A model generated the notes under the pieces. That model made no database searches, was not told the DNA's origin, and worked only from the letters and a program-made list of their open reading frames with translations. The position numbers and the translations under genes are program-made. 49,085 nucleotides of DNA. Source: a virus. Positions 16,025-41,202 of the stretch are shown here, piece by piece (the stretch's first letter is position 1; every line of letters starts with the position of its first letter). The stretch lies in UHGV virus genome UHGV-0323165; one strand, written 5' to 3'.

Positions 16025-16663
16025 TCAAGCCAGTTTCATCAGGCACGTCCCGCATGCTCTGGCTATGTTAATTTTCGCCACCTCTGCAGGTCGATTGGCT
16101 GCGTCCACCAGTTCTTGCACGTCGGCGCTGGCACCGTACCGGCGCACTACACCAACGAACTCTTCGACGTCGTGGCCGCGCAATGTCAGTACCGGCTGCC
16201 CGGTCTCTTTGTTGAACTTAGGCGCGCCGAAATCATCCGTGGCCTGTGCGATGTGGTAAAGCTCATGCTCTACCAGTGCGCAGAACTCAAGGTCGCTGCA
16301 TTGTGAGCAGTAATCGGCTGCCAGGGTGATGATGAACTTCGGGATGCGCCCGAACCATTCATGCATCTGCTGTTCCATTCTGGCTTTCTGCCATCCACCG
16401 GCGCGTAGCATTACCTGTTCAGCCTGACCGAGAACGTAGCGCCCTTTCTTCGCAAACGAGTCAGAGGCCCACATGAAGCAGAGATCAGCCTCTAACAGGT
16501 GCTCGTGGTCAGGGTTATGGATGCTTCCGGTATCGCTGAGGATTTGCCGTTTTATCCACTCATGCACTTCGTTAGCGGGAATGAGCCTGGTGTATGGCTG
16601 CCAGTTGTCGGAGGCGATGAAGTTAACTGGCGGATAAGGCCTGCGCTCGTCATCGTTAGCCAT
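16025..16663 (-). CDS. putative phage metallopeptidase-domain protein (HExxH)
   Basis: Contains an HELYH motif (VEHELYHIAQ). 212 aa upstream of the terminase genes. Confidence 0.5.
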   Translation of the reverse strand: MANDDERRPYPPVNFIASDNWQPYTRLIPANEVHEWIKRQILSDTGSIHNPDHEHLLEADLCFMWASDSFAKKGRYVLGQAEQVMLRAGGWQKARMEQQMHEWFGRIPKFIITLAADYCSQCSDLEFCALVEHELYHIAQATDDFGAPKFNKETGQPVLTLRGHDVEEFVGVVRRYGASADVQELVDAANRPAEVAKINIARACGTCLMKLA

Positions 16664-17338: not shown

Positions 17339-17531
17339 TGCTGGCCTCTTTTGTTGCCTCTACACGGCGTTCGGCTACTGACTCAATGGCTGCGGCCTTT
17401 TCTTCTGTGCGCTGCCGGTCTGCTTTTTCTTCAGCCTGTTCACGACCGCGAAAACGGCCCACACCAAACGCACCAAGCACCATCAGGATCGCAACTCCGA
17501 TTGCCGCCAGTACAGATTTGAGTGTCGTCAT
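17253..17531 (-). CDS. i-spanin (Rz-like)
   Basis: N-terminal transmembrane helix followed by a charged helical periplasmic segment. Lies directly after the endolysin gene. Confidence 0.5.
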   Translation of the reverse strand: MTTLKSVLAAIGVAILMVLGAFGVGRFRGREQAEEKADRQRTEEKAAAIESVAERRVEATKEASNVQQNVNRMPDDDVDRELRDTWKRPGGG

Positions 17532-18070
17532 AGGCTCACCCGCTCGCGCATCCAGCCATAAACGAATGACTCGTTAGCTGGTCTCTGTTCTGCCAGCTCA
17601 AGATAACGCTGGCCCTGGCTACAGTTCAGTGCCCGAAGCAATACGATTTCCCCTTCGTCACCTCGTTTCGCCAGGAAGGATTTCAGTGCGCCGATGCTAC
17701 GTGGGCCGATTTGCCCGTCGGCGATCAGATCCGGATAGAACTGCTGCTGGTTATTGAAAACGTTCAGCCAGCGCTGGAACCATTTAACCTGCACCGATGG
17801 CCCCATGTTCACACCGGTATCGCATAGTTCGGCGGCAATGGCAGGGGATACCTCTGCCACCTGGTCAAAGCGCGGGCCATACCAGTAATCAGACTCAAGG
17901 ATCGCCAGAGCCTGCTCACGTGTAAGGTTTCGCATATCACCGGTATAACCATGCGCTCGGGCGGTTGCCTGAGTAATTCCCCAGTTCGTTGGGCCGCCCT
18001 TATCGTTAGGGTGATCAACATAACCGCCCTCTTTGCCGAGGATGGTGTTAAAGATATCGTCTTTGGTCAT
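17528..18070 (-). CDS. endolysin, GH108 N-terminal domain plus PG_binding_3 C-terminal domain
   Basis: GGYVDHPNDKGGPTNWGIT motif of the GH108 family. Trimmed to MTKDDIF at 18070. Confidence 0.85.
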   Translation of the reverse strand: MTKDDIFNTILGKEGGYVDHPNDKGGPTNWGITQATARAHGYTGDMRNLTREQALAILESDYWYGPRFDQVAEVSPAIAAELCDTGVNMGPSVQVKWFQRWLNVFNNQQQFYPDLIADGQIGPRSIGALKSFLAKRGDEGEIVLLRALNCSQGQRYLELAEQRPANESFVYGWMRERVSL

Positions 18071-18072
18071 GG

Positions 18073-18348
18073 CTATTCCGTAATGACGACCTTCGCCAGG
18101 TTCCCGCGCGCCAGCCACACCGCCATGCAGATGACGGAGTTAAGCAGCAGATCGCCGAGGTTAACCTGAACGTAGTGGCCGAGAAGAATGTTGAAGGCAT
18201 TGAATCCGGCGGCAAGGATGACCAGGTAGGCCAGCACCGCGACACTCAGGCGATGACGCTTTCCCTCTTTCCGGAAAAACATCAGCCTGACCATGATTAA
18301 CAGGCAAACTATGGCGTTTGCATCCATCAGAAGAAGCTGCCATGTCAT
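18073..18348 (-). CDS. holin-like small membrane protein (second holin or antiholin)
   Basis: 91 aa with two or three hydrophobic helices, between the holin and endolysin genes. Confidence 0.45.
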   Translation of the reverse strand: MTWQLLLMDANAIVCLLIMVRLMFFRKEGKRHRLSVAVLAYLVILAAGFNAFNILLGHYVQVNLGDLLLNSVICMAVWLARGNLAKVVITE

Positions 18349-18746
18349 TTATCTTCCTCCCCCAGCCCCGGCATCTTCCCGCTTTTGGATTTGCGGAGAA
18401 TACGCAGCAGGACTGCCACGGAAATGGAAGCAGTGACAATTGCACCGACAGCTGGCGATACCTCAATGCTGGCCGGTGGCTTCATCAGGCTTAACGGCGT
18501 GTTGATGATTCCGGCCATGATTTTCGCCATGGGGACGGAGAAGAACACGCCACTGATAAACGATATCAGCGCAAAGATAGCCTGCTTCCAGAGTTGATGG
18601 GGATCTGAGGTCAGAACGTATAGCGCCGTTCCGGCGAGGGATCCGAGCATCACTGCTGGAGTCGCCTCCGGAAACAGCGTGGCAAAGGTTACACCGACTG
18701 ATGACGATGTAAGACCAACGCCTACGATAGTGAAGGTCTCAGACAT
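18345..18746 (-). CDS. holin
   Basis: Trimmed to MSETFTIV (18746). About 133 aa with several transmembrane helices and a basic C-terminus. First gene of the lysis cassette. Confidence 0.6.
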   Translation of the reverse strand: MSETFTIVGVGLTSSSVGVTFATLFPEATPAVMLGSLAGTALYVLTSDPHQLWKQAIFALISFISGVFFSVPMAKIMAGIINTPLSLMKPPASIEVSPAVGAIVTASISVAVLLRILRKSKSGKMPGLGEEDK

Positions 18747-18826
18747 ATTTATTCCGTGTGTAGTTGGTTCAGGCCCTCGGGACGATTTAACAAGTAGGCG
18801 TGTCGATGATGGTTCCCGGAGCCTGA

Positions 18827-18853
18827 AAATAAAAAAGCCAGCGACAGGCTGGC
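18827..18853 (-). terminator. rho-independent terminator just upstream of the holin gene
   Basis: Minus strand gccagc-ctgtc-gctggc hairpin followed by TTTTTTATTTT. Confidence 0.55.
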
Positions 18854-19137
18854 AATGTGAGGGTAAGGCAATGTCGGCTCTCTGGCCGAAGGGTCCCAGG
18901 TAGTGGGTTCTGTGTGTGGCGATCGGACTCGAACCGATACTCAGGTTCAGCATTAGCATCATGCCTGCCCTGCCGGATAACCGGTTGATGCGTTACTCTA
19001 CCCATTCAACCCGCAAGCGGGAATTGAGTTACACCACAACGGACAGAGCACTGAGCATTTCGTTGGCGCTCCATGCTGCTGCGTGGGTTGGGTTATGAGC
19101 CCTTCACGCCAATGCTCTTTCCTGTTGTGTAGAAACT

Positions 19138-19286: not shown

Positions 19287-20096
19287 TCATCTCGTTACTT
19301 TTGAGAGAATGGCATCAGCCATAGACTCCTGCTTATGGCATTCGGCGACAAGTTCCTCAAAGAGCGGCTGAAGTTGTTCATAGGCCGCCGTTTTCTTTAT
19401 CTCCGCAACAGTATTAATTCCCTCAATCACCGTTGAGAATTTCAGTCTGGCGTAACCTCTTCCACCGCAGCGGTCACAGGCTTTCATCACCGGAACGCCC
19501 TGGCGATCGCTTTCTGCTTTGTCCAGTACCTTGCCTTTGCCATGGCAGCGACACGAATTGCTGATAATGCCCTTTCCGTTACACGGCTTGCATTTGACCC
19601 GCACCACCTCACGCGCCTGCGTCCAGCTCTCCCAGTCACTTGGGCGAACGGCCCGCGACATTTTCGACCAGTATGGCGGTTTCCCCCATGGATATGAGAC
19701 CTTGTTGGTAAAAACTTGTGCCTCTGTAAATCCGCTACCATCACAGCAATCACATTTTCGAGTGCTGGCAGCACTTCTTGAATAATCCTGGTATGCAAAA
19801 GCGCAGAGAACCTTAAGCACGCCTGACCGAGCTGATTCATCGAGTTCCGACAGTGCTCTGAATTTACCTGATAACTTACGTGCCTGCTCATAGAGTCTCT
19901 CCAGTGCTATATCTGGGCTGCTAATGCCGATTTTCGAGAGGTAAAGATCGAAACCAAAGCCGCACTTATGACCGGCAAGACCAAGCGCCGCCATAACGTC
20001 AGTGCCGGTGAGGCTGTCTGATGCGGTTGCGCGAGGAGAGTCACTGAACATCGGTGATTTAGGCGCAAAGTATTTAGCGATTGATTCGAGGTTCAT
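19287..20096 (-). CDS. putative late antiterminator (Q position) with four DnaJ-type CxxCxGxG zinc-finger repeats
   Basis: Lies between the nin genes and the late terminator and lysis genes. Repeats are CDCCDGSG, CKPCNGKG, CRCHGKGK and CDRCGGRG. Confidence 0.45.
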   Translation of the reverse strand: MNLESIAKYFAPKSPMFSDSPRATASDSLTGTDVMAALGLAGHKCGFGFDLYLSKIGISSPDIALERLYEQARKLSGKFRALSELDESARSGVLKVLCAFAYQDYSRSAASTRKCDCCDGSGFTEAQVFTNKVSYPWGKPPYWSKMSRAVRPSDWESWTQAREVVRVKCKPCNGKGIISNSCRCHGKGKVLDKAESDRQGVPVMKACDRCGGRGYARLKFSTVIEGINTVAEIKKTAAYEQLQPLFEELVAECHKQESMADAILSKVTR

Positions 20097-27686: not shown

Positions 27687-28253
27687 TCACATAACTCCCG
27701 GCGCCATAGCGGCCAGACTTGTCACCACCGCAGCGATTGATTCAGTTGGCAGGAAGCGCAGCAGTGCTTCAGCAGCTTCTCTCACCTCTTTCTCAAGGCG
27801 TTGTATCGGCTGACCAAGTAACTTCGCCTGATGCGCTTCAGTGCACTCTTTCATGGCCTCGGCTATCAGTTCGGCCTCAGTCTTTGCGACCAGACCGAAC
27901 TCTCTCGCCACTTTCTCGTTATCCCGCGCCATCACGTCGATAATGACGGGGATCAATAGCATCAACCCCTTGTCGTTCTTCGGGCCCGGATCGTTAATCA
28001 TCCGGAAGAAGTTCTGCTTCGTGTTGTGTTCAGAACCTGCCAGTAACAACCCCTTCCCGCCGCGCGCCAGCCACTCTTTCGCAACCAGCTGAGAAATGTG
28101 AACCTGAGACTGGCCCGGCGTAGCTTTTTGCCAGGCCTTAACTGCCTCCCGTATTCGAATTAGCTTACGGTTATTGCGCGGAACACTTTGATAAATCGAA
28201 ATCAACGGACGTTGTTCAAGTCCGGTACTCTGTTGATACGCAAGTGAATGCAT
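27687..28253 (-). CDS. hypothetical protein at the cII position (possible lysogeny regulator)
   Basis: 188 aa immediately downstream of the cro-like gene with an AAAGG RBS. Homology not recognised. Confidence 0.3.
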   Translation of the reverse strand: MHSLAYQQSTGLEQRPLISIYQSVPRNNRKLIRIREAVKAWQKATPGQSQVHISQLVAKEWLARGGKGLLLAGSEHNTKQNFFRMINDPGPKNDKGLMLLIPVIIDVMARDNEKVAREFGLVAKTEAELIAEAMKECTEAHQAKLLGQPIQRLEKEVREAAEALLRFLPTESIAAVVTSLAAMAPGVM

Positions 28254-28282
28254 TGCTTTGCCTTTCGTGGTTAGGGCCGCCG

Positions 28283-28510
28283 TTAAGCGGCATGGTTCTC
28301 TGGGTGTGGAAACAGGTCGGGAAGATCAGGTCGAATTTCGTGTGCCTTAATCTCGCCACCAGTAGCGTTTACGATGGCTGTTACTTTTTCCGGAGATACG
28401 GAACCACCGTTAAGCCACTTGTGAACCGCTGGCTGGCTAACGCCGCAAATATCTGCGAGTCGCTTCTGGCTGCCAACGATTTCTAAAGCTCGTTGAATAA
28501 CTTTGTTCAT
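28283..28510 (-). CDS. cro: Cro-like HTH repressor
   Basis: 75 aa with an HTH (QKRLADICGVSQPAVHKWLNG), divergent from cI across the operator region. Confidence 0.7.
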   Translation of the reverse strand: MNKVIQRALEIVGSQKRLADICGVSQPAVHKWLNGGSVSPEKVTAIVNATGGEIKAHEIRPDLPDLFPHPENHAA

Positions 28511-28543
28511 GGATTTTACCTATCCGATTACTGGATTAATGAA

Positions 28544-28572
28544 AAGATAACCCAAGTTATGGGCATTGTCCA
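28544..28572 (-). promoter_or_regulatory. pR-like promoter (TGGACA - 17 bp - TATCTT) overlapping the OR1-like operator
   Basis: Read on the minus strand. The operator lies in the spacer and -10 element. Confidence 0.4.
28547..28560. promoter_or_regulatory. operator OR1-like (ATAACCCAAGTTAT)
   Basis: First of three ATAAC-N4-GTTAT inverted repeats spaced 24-25 bp apart. Confidence 0.55.
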
Positions 28573-28585
28573 TAACCTTTGTTAT
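28572..28585. promoter_or_regulatory. operator OR2-like (ATAACCTTTGTTAT)
   Basis: Second ATAAC-N4-GTTAT repeat. Confidence 0.55.
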
Positions 28586-28613
28586 TTTACTCTACATAAC
28601 CTCGGTTATATAT
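28585..28613 (+). promoter_or_regulatory. pRM-like weak promoter (TTTTAC - 17 bp - TATATT) giving a leaderless cI mRNA
   Basis: The -10 element ends 7 nt before the cI ATG and there is no Shine-Dalgarno sequence. Confidence 0.3.
28596..28609. promoter_or_regulatory. operator OR3-like (ATAACCTCGGTTAT)
   Basis: Third ATAAC-N4-GTTAT repeat, adjacent to the cI start. Confidence 0.55.
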
Positions 28614-28620
28614 TGATAAG

Positions 28621-29310
28621 ATGAAAACATTTGCAGAACGACTGAACGCGGCTATGTCGGCCGCTGACATATCTCAAGGACAGTTGGCTGATAAAGTCGG
28701 TATATCCCAGCCTGCAATTCAAAAGATGACGTCAGGTAAAACGAGCGGCAGCCGTAAGATGGTCGAGCTAGCTCATGCTCTGGGTGTAAGGCCGGAATGG
28801 CTTAGTTCTGGAGTGGGGGAAATGCGGATTGATGGTAATGTGCCATCGGCGGCCCAACCGGTCTCGGAAACAATTGATGTCTTTCGGGTTGATGTTTTAG
28901 ACCTGAAAGTAAGCGCTGGTCCGGGGTCTTTTATGATTTCTGAATTTGTTGAGGTCCTGCATGCTATTGAGTTCACAACTGAGCATGCCAGATCTCTTTT
29001 CGGGAACCGCACTCAAAATGATGTGAAGGTGATGACCGTAGACGGTGACAGCATGTGCCCAACGATTCAGTCGGGAGATCGCCTGTTCTTTGACGTTTCG
29101 GTGAGGAACTTCAAGGTTGACGGAGTATACGCATTTGTCTTCGGGCAGCACTTCCATGTCAAGCGCCTGCAGATGCAGGGCCTGCAGTTAGCCGTGCTTT
29201 CAGATAATCCGGCTTACAAAGATTGGTATGTGACAGAAGAAAATCAGGACCAGCTATACATCATGGGTAAAGCGCTTATTCACGAATCGATAGCTTACAA
29301 CAAACTGTAG
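28621..29310 (+). CDS. cI: CI repressor (HTH plus S24 LexA-like peptidase domain)
   Basis: N-terminal HTH (QGQLADKVGISQPAIQKM), Ser in GDSM and Lys in VKRL of the C-terminal domain. Confidence 0.85.
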   Translation: MKTFAERLNAAMSAADISQGQLADKVGISQPAIQKMTSGKTSGSRKMVELAHALGVRPEWLSSGVGEMRIDGNVPSAAQPVSETIDVFRVDVLDLKVSAGPGSFMISEFVEVLHAIEFTTEHARSLFGNRTQNDVKVMTVDGDSMCPTIQSGDRLFFDVSVRNFKVDGVYAFVFGQHFHVKRLQMQGLQLAVLSDNPAYKDWYVTEENQDQLYIMGKALIHESIAYNKL

Positions 29311-29390
29311 CAGTGGCCGGAAGAGACTTTTGGTTAGAGACGAAGCTGCGGCTGGTTTAGCAGGCGCACTGAAATTACGCTGAGGGGATA

Positions 29391-29774
29391 ATGGAAGAAT
29401 CAGATCAGGAAAAACGAGAGCGCGAGCTAATGGAGGTGCTTTGGCGAAAATTTAGAGCGCTATCACCTGAATTACTGTCTCAATTCCTAGCAGAACGAGG
29501 CGTTCCAATCGTCTCATGCCCTATATGTGGCAGTGCAGATATGGCCGTACCACAGGCCAGCGAGCAAATTTATGACGGAGATAAGCCGACTGGAGAATGG
29601 TTTACGTATGTAAACCCATCAAAAGTAAGCTCATTTGGGTTTGAACCATTACACTCCTTGCTTCAGTACAACTACCGCATAATTTGCAAAAATTGCGGAT
29701 ATGAAAACAGATTCTCTGCGCACCCAGTTCTATCGTGGCTGGAGAAGAATGACAAAAAAACTAATGCCGAGTAG
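29391..29774 (+). CDS. hypothetical zinc-ribbon protein (CPICG...CKNCG), first gene of the rex-position cassette
   Basis: 127 aa. GAGGG RBS. No terminator after cI. Lower GC than the flanks. Confidence 0.55.
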   Translation: MEESDQEKRERELMEVLWRKFRALSPELLSQFLAERGVPIVSCPICGSADMAVPQASEQIYDGDKPTGEWFTYVNPSKVSSFGFEPLHSLLQYNYRIICKNCGYENRFSAHPVLSWLEKNDKKTNAE

Positions 29775-29858
29775 ACTATGAATCAGCACAAAGAAGATGC
29801 AACAGTCGTCTGGGATCGTTTTCCACAACATGGTGGCGGTAGCGGCGGAGGTGGTGAG

Positions 29859-30107
29859 ATGGAAAGTAGAGTTGCAAGACTGGAATCCGATATTGAGTAC
29901 ATAAAGCGCGATGTATCTGATATTAAATCGGATATTAAGTCTATTGATTCCAGGTTAGCAACAATTGAAACAGCAATTGGCTCGCTTAAAACCACCATTA
30001 AAGCCTCCGCTGTTGTCATCACAGTGGTTTTCTCTTTTTGCGCATATATTTTTGGTAATTATGTAGCCAAAATACTTGATGCACTAAATGGGTTGGTTCT
30101 CAAGTAA
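29859..30107 (+). CDS. small coiled-coil protein with C-terminal transmembrane helix (XhlA-like architecture), second gene of the cassette
   Basis: Start taken at MESRVARL, which is preceded by GGAGGTGGTGAG. The ORF track begins at 29778, which would add a GGGSGGGG N-terminus. The C-terminal hydrophobic helix is VVITVVFSFCAYIFGNYV. Confidence 0.5.
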   Translation: MESRVARLESDIEYIKRDVSDIKSDIKSIDSRLATIETAIGSLKTTIKASAVVITVVFSFCAYIFGNYVAKILDALNGLVLK

Positions 30108-30114
30108 CCCCGGC

Positions 30115-30136
30115 CCCGGCATTGCCGGGTTTTTTA
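30115..30136 (+). terminator. rho-independent terminator ending the cI cassette operon
   Basis: cccggc-att-gccggg hairpin followed by TTTTTT. Confidence 0.65.
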
Positions 30137-30331
30137 ATTTCCTTTCCGCGCTATCTCAGCGGCATCCCTGTTAATACCCTTCCCTATCACGTTTCCTGTT
30201 TCCTTCCGGTACTGCTTCAGCTTGTCGATGATGTTTTGCTGGGTCATAGGTAAATCAGCCAGTGACAATTCCATCACCGCCCGCCCCATCGCCTGAATTT
30301 TCATGCTTATACGCTCTTCATCCAGAACCAT
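30134..30331 (-). CDS. hypothetical small protein convergent with the cI operon
   Basis: Start MVLDEERI at 30331 has AGGAGGG 6 nt upstream. About 65 aa. The ORF track begins at 30370. Confidence 0.4.
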   Translation of the reverse strand: MVLDEERISMKIQAMGRAVMELSLADLPMTQQNIIDKLKQYRKETGNVIGKGINRDAAEIARKGN

Positions 30332-30442
30332 GCACATCCCTCCTGCTGTTTTTTTAAGCATAGCACTCATGATTTACAAAAATAAATTCATTTAGTTATC
30401 ATTGATTTATAACTTATGTGATTGATATTATAAATTAGGTTA

Positions 30443-30471
30443 TTGCCATCACTCATAACTAAGGTTATCTT
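30443..30471 (+). promoter_or_regulatory. pL-like promoter (TTGCCA - 17 bp - TATCTT) overlapping a fourth operator copy
   Basis: Same arrangement as the pR-like promoter. Reads rightward away from cI. Confidence 0.4.
30455..30468. promoter_or_regulatory. operator OL-like (ATAACTAAGGTTAT)
   Basis: Same ATAAC-N4-GTTAT inverted repeat as the three OR sites. Confidence 0.5.
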
Positions 30472-30947
30472 TAACCCATCGAAACGAAACATCGACAGCT
30501 GAGCGAAGTTAGCCAGCGGCGGACAGCAAGTCGCCTGCTCATTAAGAATTCAGTCAAGCAGCAAATCACCCGGAGCGCTCCTGGCAAATTGAAATGGCGC
30601 CCAATGGGATTGAGGCAGGTGTGTAACGCGTGGCGGGTATAGCACACGAAGAGGACTCCGCACCGGAATGGTTTGCTGCTCAGTTCCCGAACATCGGGGA
30701 AGCTTCAGTTGGAATGTTTTGGGATTGGATGAATGCGCAGGCTGATGCGCTGGGTGACGGAACGGGCAGAGCGAAACTGATAACCCGCCGTCACTGGAAT
30801 TGACCGGACTCGGATTAGCCGAGACAGGGCCGAATGACAAAAGTCACCACCCGCTGCGGGGCCAGCAGTAAGCCGGAGTTCAGCACCGGCCATCCAATCA
30901 CCAAAGCATTTCTCCCGCATCAGCGGGTAACGACAGAGGGTAAGTCA

Positions 30948-31616
30948 ATGATTCGTCTTAACAACGAAATTAAAAATCAGCTATGCCATAACCTGCTTCT
31001 CGCATCCCCATTGTTTGAGAAAGCGAAAGCTGCGGTTAATGAGAGGGCGAAAATTGTTGAAGAAATTCGACAGGCATTGCTCAAGCAAGAAAACACTAGC
31101 GATGAGCAAATAACTAAGGCTCGGGAAGATTTCAAAGATAACTCCTTCATCAAGATGCAGGTCGGCGCTAAAACTGCAATTTTAAAGGTCATTATCAATG
31201 GTGAGTATCACGAATTAGCCAGGAACGGTTTGGATCATCGCTATCGCCACCGTGGAAAACATATTGGTAAGCACGATCTTGAAAGCGACCTATTCTTCGG
31301 CGCTTCCTTCGCGCCTGTAGTTGATTGGGGTTATGTTCCTGAAAGTTACAGCACGCTGAAGAAGGTTGGAAAATTACACGACCGACTCACTGAATCGACG
31401 GTAACCATCAACGTTCTTTACGATGAAGTTGACGCCTTCCAATTGCAGGTTAAGGGTGCTCTAACCAAAGTCTCAACCGTTAAAAAACTGGCTGAGATGT
31501 GGCCTGAGGCAGTGCCATATTTGCCTGAGGTGCAGCGCCGTGAAGCGACCAGCACCGCACTTGCCATTCCCGTTGAAACACTAAACGCCCTTTGCGGCAT
31601 ACCAAAGAATGAATGA
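30948..31616 (+). CDS. hypothetical protein, first gene of the early-left operon
   Basis: Start MIRLNNEI has GAGGG 7 nt upstream. About 222 aa. Followed by a terminator. Confidence 0.5.
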   Translation: MIRLNNEIKNQLCHNLLLASPLFEKAKAAVNERAKIVEEIRQALLKQENTSDEQITKAREDFKDNSFIKMQVGAKTAILKVIINGEYHELARNGLDHRYRHRGKHIGKHDLESDLFFGASFAPVVDWGYVPESYSTLKKVGKLHDRLTESTVTINVLYDEVDAFQLQVKGALTKVSTVKKLAEMWPEAVPYLPEVQRREATSTALAIPVETLNALCGIPKNE

Positions 31617-39889: not shown

Positions 39890-39921
39890 ATGTCCTTTGG
39901 CACATCAAACGAGGAATGATT

Positions 39922-41202
39922 ATGGCAGCATACCCAACAGGCGTAGAGGTTCATGGCGAATCGTTACGCATATGGTTCATATATCAGGGGAAGCGTGTCA
40001 GGGAAAATCTCGGCGTTCCTGACACGCCAAAAAACAGGAAAATGGCAGGCGAACTTCGGGCTTCAGTCTGCTTTGCGATAAAGACAGGCACATTCAATTA
40101 TGCCTCGCAATTCCCTGATTCATCGAACGCAGAGAAATTCAGCACTGTCAGAAAGCAAATCTCACTACTTGAACTGAAATCGAAATGGCTTGGGCTTAAA
40201 GAGATGGAGCTTAGCCTCGGGACGTTGAGGCGTTACGATTGCCACCTCACAACCACTATCGAAACAATTGGTGAGCACAGGTATATCGGCAGCCTGAACA
40301 CTGAAGATATCCTTAGTGCCAGGAAGGAGCTACTGAACGGCTGGCAGAAGACCAGACATGGCCTAAATCATCCACCCAAAAAGGGAAGAAGCGTTCCTAC
40401 AGTCAATAGCTATATGGCATGCCTTGGCGGGATGCTGAGCTTTGCTTTCAAAAGTGGCTACCTGAAAACCGATCTGATGGCAGGTATTACCCCTCTCGCA
40501 AAAGAAAGACCCATTCCAGATCCTCTTACTTCTGATGAGTATCAGAGAGTGGTTGCGGCCTGCCCAACGCTACAGTTTCAGAATATGGTTATCTTTGCGG
40601 TAAATACAGGCGTCAGGCATGGCGAACTAAGCGCGTTATCCTGGGAGGATGTGGATACTGTCAACTGGACTGTTACAGTGTCACGGAACTATTCCCTGAA
40701 GGGAAACTTCACCCTGCCAAAAACCAACTCCGGGATTCGAACAATACAGCTGACCCAGCCAGCAATTGATGCACTCAAGGCGCAAATGCCACTGACCAGA
40801 ATGATGGCATCCCACAAGGTAAGCGTCAGCCTACGGGAATACAAAAAAAAGAGAACCGATGAATGCACCTTTATATTCTCGCCGTCCATTACTTCAATGA
40901 ACGGTAAGAAGACGATGTGCTACGTCCCCGGATCCATTAATTCAGCCTGGCGCACTGCCCTGCGTCGTGCAGGCGTCCGACAAAGACGGTCTTATGAAAC
41001 CAGGAACACATATGCGTGCTGGGCACTGGTCGCCGGAGCGAACCCAAATTTCGTTGCGCACCAGATGGGCCATTCGTCAGCGCAAATGCTATTCACGGTT
41101 TACGGTAAATGGATGACCGAGAATAACCATGACCAGGTGAGCATTTTGAACGCATCATTTACTCAAAATGCCCCACCGATGCCCCATAGAAAAACCGCAT
41201 AA
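39922..41202 (+). CDS. int: tyrosine integrase (lambda Int family)
   Basis: Arm-binding N-terminal domain followed by the catalytic R..HxxR..Y region (..HQMGHSSAQMLFTVYGKW..). Confidence 0.9.
   Translation: MAAYPTGVEVHGESLRIWFIYQGKRVRENLGVPDTPKNRKMAGELRASVCFAIKTGTFNYASQFPDSSNAEKFSTVRKQISLLELKSKWLGLKEMELSLGTLRRYDCHLTTTIETIGEHRYIGSLNTEDILSARKELLNGWQKTRHGLNHPPKKGRSVPTVNSYMACLGGMLSFAFKSGYLKTDLMAGITPLAKERPIPDPLTSDEYQRVVAACPTLQFQNMVIFAVNTGVRHGELSALSWEDVDTVNWTVTVSRNYSLKGNFTLPKTNSGIRTIQLTQPAIDALKAQMPLTRMMASHKVSVSLREYKKKRTDECTFIFSPSITSMNGKKTMCYVPGSINSAWRTALRRAGVRQRRSYETRNTYACWALVAGANPNFVAHQMGHSSAQMLFTVYGKWMTENNHDQVSILNASFTQNAPPMPHRKTA

Follow-up and report, generated by a model that had tools for sequence, protein, structure and literature searches.

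What is the function of two small genes that stand directly behind the repressor gene cI of an Enterobacter prophage, in the slot that is held by rexAB in phage lambda? The question arises from the virus genome UHGV-0323165, of which a stretch of 49,085 nucleotides was analysed (the window; pattern and GC comparisons were made against its full length). The two genes lie in the immunity region of an integrated phi80/HK639-like siphovirus prophage and form a cassette for a zinc-ribbon protein (gene 1) and a small coiled-coil membrane protein (gene 2). The region from cI to N is recognised as a hotspot and harbours the abortive-infection systems RexAB and BstA (PMC8585504), and the original prediction, made from the letters of the DNA, had proposed a superinfection-exclusion or abortive-infection module. 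As judged from the comparisons below, the cassette is real, conserved and uncharacterised, and a good candidate for a new phage-exclusion system. No published description of the gene pair was found, with one relevant E. coli prophage defence screen lying outside the search.

All open reading frames (ORFs) and features that had been described for the locus were present, including the alternative start of gene 2 that yields an 82-aa product (Table 1). The genes cI, gene 1 and gene 2 and an intrinsic terminator form one operon between three OR and three OL operators. The inverted repeat ATAAC-N4-GTTAT has six matches in the whole window (0.77 expected), three at OR, three at OL and none elsewhere, and the six repeats are likely the cI operators. 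Because the OR and OL repeats flank it, the cassette lies inside the immunity region, as does rexAB in lambda, and the rexAB-equivalent position that had been assigned to it was confirmed. The cI protein matches phrog_4 of the PHROGs collection (1e-59); its message is probably leaderless, by analogy with lambda PRM, because the -10 element of the PRM-like promoter ends so close to the cI start codon.

The original prediction had placed no terminator between cI and the cassette and one directly after it, and both statements hold. The terminator scan found nothing terminator-like from the cI stop to gene 1, and the spacer (29305-29395) folds no better than shuffled sequence (z -0.66); behind gene 2 there is a hairpin at 30115-30129 followed by a T-run (free energy -11.3 kcal/mol), for which a U-tract is absent on the minus strand. 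A promoter-like site at the 3' end of gene 1 (ATGACA-17-TAGACT, 29749-29777, plus strand) and a terminator-like hairpin in the transmembrane-coding part of gene 2 (30007-30027, plus strand) are both within the chance expectation of the scans, and an Rfam scan of 28000-31200 gave zero matches. We infer from this layout that the cassette is co-transcribed with cI from the repressor-maintenance promoter and is made in the lysogen. The lower GC content that had been reported for the cassette is real (0.445 for gene 1 and 0.409 for gene 2, versus 0.487 for cI and 0.517 for the window), and the drop is modest, not marked.

The cassette occupies an exchangeable slot. The cI gene shares 95.8% nucleotide identity with cI of phage HK639, and the homology to HK639 ends at about 29306, at the cI stop; from about 29335, the window is homologous to the Enterobacter phages ENT1, BHUENT3 and BHUENT6, in which the cassette is present with 99% nucleotide and 100% protein identity. 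The cargo of the slot is three unrelated ORFs and a terminator in HK639, and gene 40A in phi80. ENT1, BHUENT3 and BHUENT6 each have a cI different from that of the window, and in BHUENT6 the cassette sits after a different cI of 232 aa. A 70-88% identical cassette follows two more repressor types, a RacR-like helix-turn-helix (HTH) protein and another S24 cI; in all, the identical or 70-88% identical cassette was found after four different repressors. By its distribution, the cassette is a swappable, mobile accessory module, in agreement with the moron-like acquisition that had been suggested. Gene 1 and gene 2 proteins of exactly this sequence are encoded on about 290 contigs of the Enterobacter cloacae complex. 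A megablast search of E. coli genomes with the cassette gave zero matches, because the E. coli version has a different type of partner gene.

The two CxxC pairs that had been noticed in gene 1 are CPIC (C43, C46) and CKNC (C99, C102), which form the two knuckles of a generic zinc ribbon, a class that includes Lar and the TFIIS/TFIIB type. A word-indexed protein search gave only five close relatives, and an exhaustive HMMER scan of 1.84 billion representatives was needed to recover the family, which comprises only 58 clusters, mostly of 110-165 aa. All four cysteines are invariant in the alignment of the 58 family representatives, and an N-terminal helix with the motif TPExF..FL..G is conserved. 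Compared with a 70-88% identical relative, gene 1 is under purifying selection (pN 0.06; pS saturated). No curated Pfam or NCBIfam family was matched at threshold, only generic zinc-ribbon and Lar models at 14-19 bits; for the restriction-alleviation protein Lar, the scores were 19.3 bits with TIGR03655 (cut-off 39.6) and 14.1 bits with PF14354 (cut-off 28.6). The PHROGs match is phrog_4293, of unknown function, and a PDB sequence search returned noise only. Structure prediction, which had been proposed as a check, gave a confident AlphaFold2 (AF2) model when the family alignment was supplied (predicted local distance difference test, pLDDT, 91; the model from the single sequence, at 56, was unusable), and apart from a generic zinc ribbon no known fold matches it. 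Gene 1 encodes a real, conserved zinc protein, and nothing points to enzymatic activity. As a side observation, four separate stretches of a 1031-aa protein (P0087) match the C-terminal zinc-ribbon half of gene 1, and the ribbon module may occur as a repeat in another context.

Gene 2 has the predicted order of a coiled coil followed by a C-terminal transmembrane helix: 14 of 14 heptad a and d positions are hydrophobic (Ile, Val or Leu), and the segment of residues 77-97 reaches a Kyte-Doolittle 19-residue maximum of 2.06. By coiled-coil rules, trimers are favoured where both the a and the d positions are Ile, and the coiled coil of gene 2 is probably trimeric; a PDB sequence search gave weak matches, to trimeric coiled coils only. 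Its topology would be that of a tail-anchored inner-membrane protein with the coiled coil in the cytoplasm. The PHROGs match is phrog_6136 (5e-31), and the PHROGs families of the cassette are all of unknown function. The core of gene 2 is under purifying selection (dN/dS about 0.05 versus the 70-88% identical relative). Shared by the relatives are a G-rich stretch, a Met, the motif RVA(K/R)LESDVEYIKRD, the coiled coil and the transmembrane helix; the N-terminal 20-50 residues and the C-terminal halves vary. At two IMG/VR loci (L153 and L155), a truncation or frameshift interrupts the gene 2 homologue before its transmembrane helix, and the zinc-ribbon gene is intact.

Species-representative genomes gave 41-43 distinct loci, and at nearly all of them a partner gene lies upstream on the same strand, its stop codon overlapping or abutting the start of the gene 2-like gene. 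The partner is a zinc ribbon (type A) in Symbiopectobacterium, Xenorhabdus, Vibrio, Cellvibrionaceae, Desulfarculaceae and Methylocystis, and a beta-rich protein of about 143 aa (type B) in E. coli, Serratia, Photorhabdus, Xenorhabdus, Morganella and Phaseolibacter; a few further partner types exist. By this comparison, gene 2 is the constant partner, which pairs with at least two unrelated upstream families while its G-rich/RVAKLESD core stays the same. Among IMG/VR viral contigs, 54 of 54 distinct type-A homologues are followed by an overlapping gene 2-like ORF. Conservation of the pair reaches from Enterobacterales to Desulfobacter and Methylocystis. At one locus (L074), a relative of gene 2 stands directly after cI with no partner.

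The slot of rexAB itself is filled by a sister cassette in lambdoid prophages of E. coli and Salmonella with a lambda-type cI. There, a gene 2 homologue (P0010) follows cI and is preceded by a 145-aa Cys-free partner, which overlaps it by 14 nt and starts 7 nt past the cI stop; a terminator, pL and N then follow. The partners in such sister cassettes are beta-rich and Cys-free, of about 141-150 aa, and this type-B partner matches no family, whether in Pfam, in PADLOC or elsewhere. The Enterobacter versions that follow RacR-like or other cI repressors likewise have partners of 141-150 aa, which are unrelated to gene 1 and related to the E. coli partner (BLASTP 3e-06). The sister cassette, which replaces rexAB, was seen at L006:4577-5372 and also at L011, L014, L017, L032, L047 and L055, and more than 1000 E. 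coli contigs carry it; accessions of the E. coli pair include CAS10083/CAS10084 and WP_024186922.

The alternative start of gene 2 is a conserved feature of the family, which is a new result that the original prediction had missed. The internal Shine-Dalgarno (SD) sequence, GGAGG at 29847-29851, is encoded by the Gly-rich stretch and lies 7 nt 5' of the ATG. Among the distinct loci, GGAGG stands 4-10 nt (usually 7) before the conserved Met that opens the coiled coil in 36 of 41, against 14.0 expected from synonymous resampling with each locus's own codon usage and with related loci treated as independent; a value of 36 was not reached in any of 200,000 simulations. The start codon itself is retained: it is ATG, or TTG or GTG at loci with Leu or Val as this residue. 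At offset -4, 32 of 35 Gly codons are GGA, versus 16% GGA among the Gly codons of the same loci. In two methanotroph loci GGAGG is encoded by Pro-Glu-Asp, not by Gly-Gly, which points to selection on nucleotides rather than on amino acids. An independent IMG/VR set contains GGAGG in 34 of 45 loci and a 4-mer in four more.

The frame of the long form is kept open all the same: it runs for at least 20 codons 5' of the internal start at all 41 loci (3/41 and 20/41 for the other frames), and the long start abuts or overlaps the stop of the partner across loci. In the window it lies 3 nt past the gene 1 stop and has no SD of its own, and translation of the long form is therefore presumably coupled to that of gene 1. 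Gene 2 is probably made as isoforms of 109 and 82 aa with both starts used; the simplest reading of these data would be a long form made by coupling to gene 1 and a short form that is initiated independently. The 82-aa product is already annotated by some gene callers (P0039). In the N-terminal peptide of the long form, an aromatic/Leu-Pro motif is found in 44 of 45 distinct type-A pairs, despite unrelated C-terminal halves. A strict co-variation of this peptide with the partner type was also considered and was dropped, since the type-B peptides vary too much for it to be judged cleanly.

Among known systems, the cassette resembles RexAB and SieB in logic and position, and by its sequence it is a member of neither, nor of XhlA by curated thresholds. 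As with RexA and RexB of lambda, there are two genes, one of them for a membrane protein, in a slot that lies downstream of cI, inside the bounds of the immunity region and ahead of the terminator in front of pL; the location between cI and pL follows from ORF order, operators and terminators, and co-transcription with the repressor would be expected in the lysogen. The sister cassettes of E. coli prophages with lambda immunity stand in this slot with a type-B partner and a gene 2 homologue. RexAB itself acts by abortive infection, in which membrane potential is lost upon superinfection. Unlike RexA and RexB, to which they have no sequence relationship, the cassette proteins are less than half the size, and gene 2 encodes a single-pass tail anchor with a coiled coil and an internal second start, whereas RexB is polytopic.

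SieB of P22 and lambda is an abortive-infection membrane protein that is expressed from the prophage, and its gene reportedly also yields an N-terminally truncated in-frame product (Esc) that modulates it. The internal SD and ATG of gene 2 predict the same two-isoform logic, the isoforms being only predicted here. The cassette differs from SieB in having no Pfam SieB match and in having a zinc-ribbon partner, which SieB lacks; moreover, the gene for SieB lies in the pL operon and not after cI. The exclusion by SieB is documented as a prophage function (PMC10883804). BstA of phage BTP1 is likewise encoded downstream of the prophage repressor, presumably with a shared promoter, and has its own terminator (PMC8585504); it is an unrelated, single, large DNA-associated protein, and no PADLOC BstA match was found in the cassette.

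The likeness of gene 2 to XhlA-type proteins that had been pointed out extends to the architecture, an N-terminal coiled coil with a single C-terminal transmembrane helix in about 70-110 aa, and not to the profile: XhlA (PF10779) matches gene 2 at 20.2 bits (E 7e-4; profile positions 1-59 of 67) against a gathering cut-off of 34.7, and the relatives P0010 and P0013 at 21.6-23.0 bits, such that neither gene 2 nor the tested relatives belong to XhlA by curated score. XhlA of PBSX, a membrane protein that acts with the holin XhlB and is needed for lysis (PMC5589764), is the best named profile match and has the same arrangement in about 80-90 aa; gene 2 differs in its place in an immunity region, in its Gram-negative host and in its neighbours, which are cI and a terminator and not a lysis cassette. 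Relatives of gene 2 are named 'hemolysin XhlA' by NCBI. We know of no XhlA protein with a Gly-rich N-terminal extension, an internal start or an obligatory upstream partner. Dual in-frame starts also exist in the lambda holin/antiholin gene S105/S107, the isoforms of which differ by an N-terminal extension. Both are genes for small phage membrane proteins; in gene 2, however, the extension is 27 residues long, not 2, and comprises a conserved partner-type-specific peptide and a glycine tether, and the product is a single-pass coiled coil, not a holin with three transmembrane segments.

The original statement that neither protein resembles RexA, RexB or a nameable family has stood up to the searches. 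In Pfam at E<=1, neither a Rex family nor a SieB family was found for the cassette proteins, and in Pfam, NCBIfam and PADLOC nothing reached curated thresholds for either protein. PADLOC v2.0.0 (5027 defence models) gave no match for gene 1, for the type-B partners or for the SPN3UB pair, and for gene 2 only coiled-coil noise (E>0.003).

For the function of the cassette, the reading that we favour, with somewhat less than an even chance of being right, is a lysogen-expressed exclusion module in which a membrane coiled-coil effector would be regulated by a docked partner and by the ratio of its isoforms. The mobile cassette would be transcribed with cI from the repressor-maintenance promoter and hence be made in the lysogen. 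The long form of gene 2, translated by coupling to gene 1, would present its aromatic-Pro peptide on a flexible glycine tether, and the short form would start at the SD and ATG hidden within the glycine codons. The zinc-ribbon protein may dock on the N-terminal peptide of the long isoform as a sensor or brake, and the effector, once released or re-assembled, would perturb the membrane or its potential, giving exclusion comparable to that by RexAB/SieB; the proportion of the long to the short isoform might set the threshold or give the phage self-immunity. A wider version is doubtful: it would make these loci a widespread, undescribed exclusion family with a tail-anchored, probably trimeric effector, two isoforms and swappable partners that dock on the long form and determine the sensing, the interchangeable small cytoplasmic partners being zinc-ribbon, beta-rich and other proteins.

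Several observations weigh against an exclusion module of this form. Neighbour typing of 80 type-A loci in IMG/VR by tblastn found a repressor upstream in only seven and a tape-measure gene within 3 kb downstream in 55. At the hotspot downstream of cI, where a search for the pair had been proposed, gene 2 relatives directly follow lambda-type cI, RacR-like and other S24 repressors (in representative genomes, the upstream neighbours of the pairs carry HTH_3 in 13 of 39 and Peptidase_S24 in 9 of 39), and only this small minority of the type-A loci follows a repressor. No consensus promoter or terminator was found at the tail-module loci, and lysogenic expression is therefore not given family-wide. 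The N-terminal extension of gene 2 is weakly constrained (dN/dS about 0.4 over 27 codons), and the long isoform could therefore be minor or dispensable; the SD statistics assume independence of related loci. The partner, and not the membrane protein, could be the effector, and the lack of a PADLOC match is neutral towards a new system and lends it no support. The tail-module pairs lie in an accessory island between the genes for the major tail protein and the tape measure, together with anti-repressor and regulator genes; two small ORFs, probably tail chaperones, lie in between. Taken over all loci, the module is phage cargo with at least two preferred landing sites, and the wiring to cI holds for the window and for most type-B pairs and is not universal.

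The linkage to tape-measure genes raises another function, in which the membrane protein would disturb the injection channel or the tape-measure insertion of incoming siphoviruses and the cell would not be killed. The gp15 moron of HK97, which adjoins the tape-measure gene, is a model for such a block of DNA entry. We consider this improbable for the cassette, in spite of the 55 of 80 zinc-ribbon-type viral loci near a tape-measure gene and of the predicted membrane anchor: gene 2 is nearly all cytoplasmic by prediction, with about 12 residues past the transmembrane helix, its partner is a cytoplasmic zinc protein, and the linkage may only mirror the accessory island with its anti-repressor genes. 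Known prophage exclusion proteins do work in this way, such as SieA of P22, an inner-membrane protein that is expressed from the prophage and blocks DNA injection (PMC10883804). An XhlA-type lysis accessory, which would help the phage holin to time or enhance lysis and for which the position after cI would be incidental, has no better prospects. The sub-threshold Pfam scores (20-23 bits) of gene 2 and its relatives, the NCBI names, the architecture as in PBSX XhlA (PMC5589764), dual starts that recall holin/antiholin pairs, and the tail-module copies, which would be expressed late, are consistent with it. However, a holin and an endolysin are already encoded after Q in the window, about 11 kb from the cassette and on the other strand, and the cassette is missing from the viable close relatives HK639 and phi80, and for these two reasons a core lysis role is unlikely; further, many prophages wire the cassette to the repressor promoter, which is the opposite of late expression, and the XhlA scores stay under the curated cut-off of 34.7 bits.

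Addiction of the toxin-antitoxin (TA) kind, with a membrane toxin from gene 2 checked by gene 1 and the prophage thereby stabilised, or another lysogenic conversion that alters envelope physiology, stress tolerance or vesicle formation, is also unlikely, if a little less so. Two small, translationally coupled genes that are always co-inherited, that include one for a membrane protein and that move between elements would fit such a system. The partnerless relative at L074 was counted on the same side; because this locus has no partner, the membrane protein need not be toxic by itself. Pfam and NCBIfam gave no match to known TA families, and the close relatives are confined to phage and prophage contexts; TA and abortive-infection functions overlap, and this explanation is not cleanly separable from the exclusion module. 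That the ORFs are spurious or decaying remnants without function deserves almost no credence: the lack of a characterised homologue and a GC content below that of the neighbouring genes would agree with it, and it is refuted by the purifying selection, the invariant Cys residues in 58 clusters and the confident AF2 model, along with the occurrence of the exact proteins on many contigs and the retention of the pair across distant taxa.

Should the cassette exclude phages, the repressor-linked prophage defences would gain a compact system of about 750 bp, a related version of which is common in prophages of E. coli, Salmonella, Klebsiella, Enterobacter, Photorhabdus and Xenorhabdus. It would then provide a simple model for the coupling of one membrane effector to swappable sensors, and would indicate that an internal start within glycine-linker codons can set isoform ratios, which bears on self-immunity in abortive infection. 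The embedded internal start and the organisation with a constant effector and variable partners are the parts worth bench work. With respect to annotation, hundreds of genomes label such genes 'hemolysin XhlA' on sub-threshold similarity (20-23 versus 34.7 bits).

Table 1. Features of the immunity region and lysis genes in the window of UHGV-0323165 (positions in nt).
Feature	Position	Strand	Remarks
Endolysin	17528-18118	-	
Holin	18345-18962	-	
Q	19287-20096	-	
CII-like gene	27687-28253	-	
Cro/YdaS-type gene	28283-28510	-	
OR	28547-28609		three operator-like inverted repeats ATAAC-N4-GTTAT
PRM-like promoter	28586-28614		promoter scan; -10 ends 7 nt 5' of cI ATG
cI repressor	28621-29310	+	229 aa; first gene of operon; HTH_3 (Pfam 6e-18), Peptidase_S24 (1e-08)
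Left junction of exchangeable slot	29307-29335		end of HK639 homology versus start of ENT1/BHUENT3/6 homology
Gene 1	29391-29774	+	127 aa; cytoplasmic zinc-ribbon protein (predicted); partner type A
Gene 1 Cys codons	29517, 29526, 29685, 29694	+	
Gene 2, long form	29778-30107	+	109 aa
Gene 2, N-terminal peptide	29778-29831	+	residues 1-18, ...VVWDRFPQH; aromatic-Pro motif typical of type-A pairs
Gene 2, Gly-rich stretch	29832-29858	+	residues 19-27, GGGSGGGGE
Gene 2, short form	29859-30107	+	82 aa; from in-frame internal ATG
Gene 2, coiled coil	29859-30005	+	residues 28-76; seven perfect heptads
Gene 2, transmembrane helix	30006-30068	+	residues 77-97; hydropathy
Gene 2, C-terminal tail		+	residues 98-109; short, 12 aa
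Intrinsic terminator	30115-30136	+	6 GC pairs, loop of 3, then TTTTTT
78-aa ORF	30134-30370	-	conserved; right flank of slot, outside cassette; phrog_3975 (7e-33)
OL	30409-30468		three operator-like repeats; PL-like promoters 30373-30471; right boundary of immunity region

The 78-aa ORF corresponds to HK639_46 and has 82-84% nucleotide identity to an unannotated stretch of phi80. It lies between the cassette terminator and OL/pL and converges on gene 2; as the minus strand of the terminator lacks a U-tract, transcription of this ORF could continue into gene 2 in the antisense direction. About 39 nt separate the start of the ORF from the outermost OL repeat, a hint of a promoter that diverges from pL. 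The OL/pL segment has a GC content of 23.6%, and the pL region (from 30357) is 97.6% identical to HK639, with the homology ending at 30521. A counterpart of the putL-like antiterminator RNA that HK639 has downstream of pL was considered and rejected, as the homology ends before it.

Other predicted genes of the window comprise a gene for an Nmad5 (nucleotide-modification-associated domain 5) protein as the first gene of the early-left operon (30834-31616, plus strand; Pfam 5e-30), and a transposase-like ORF (16025-16663, minus strand; phrog_513, 7e-102) between the lysis genes and the small/large terminase region. An integrase gene (39916-41202, plus strand; phrog_1, 4e-69) marks the end of the prophage. 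Beyond about 41.3 kb, the sequence looks like host DNA, and the window therefore appears to span the junction between prophage and chromosome.

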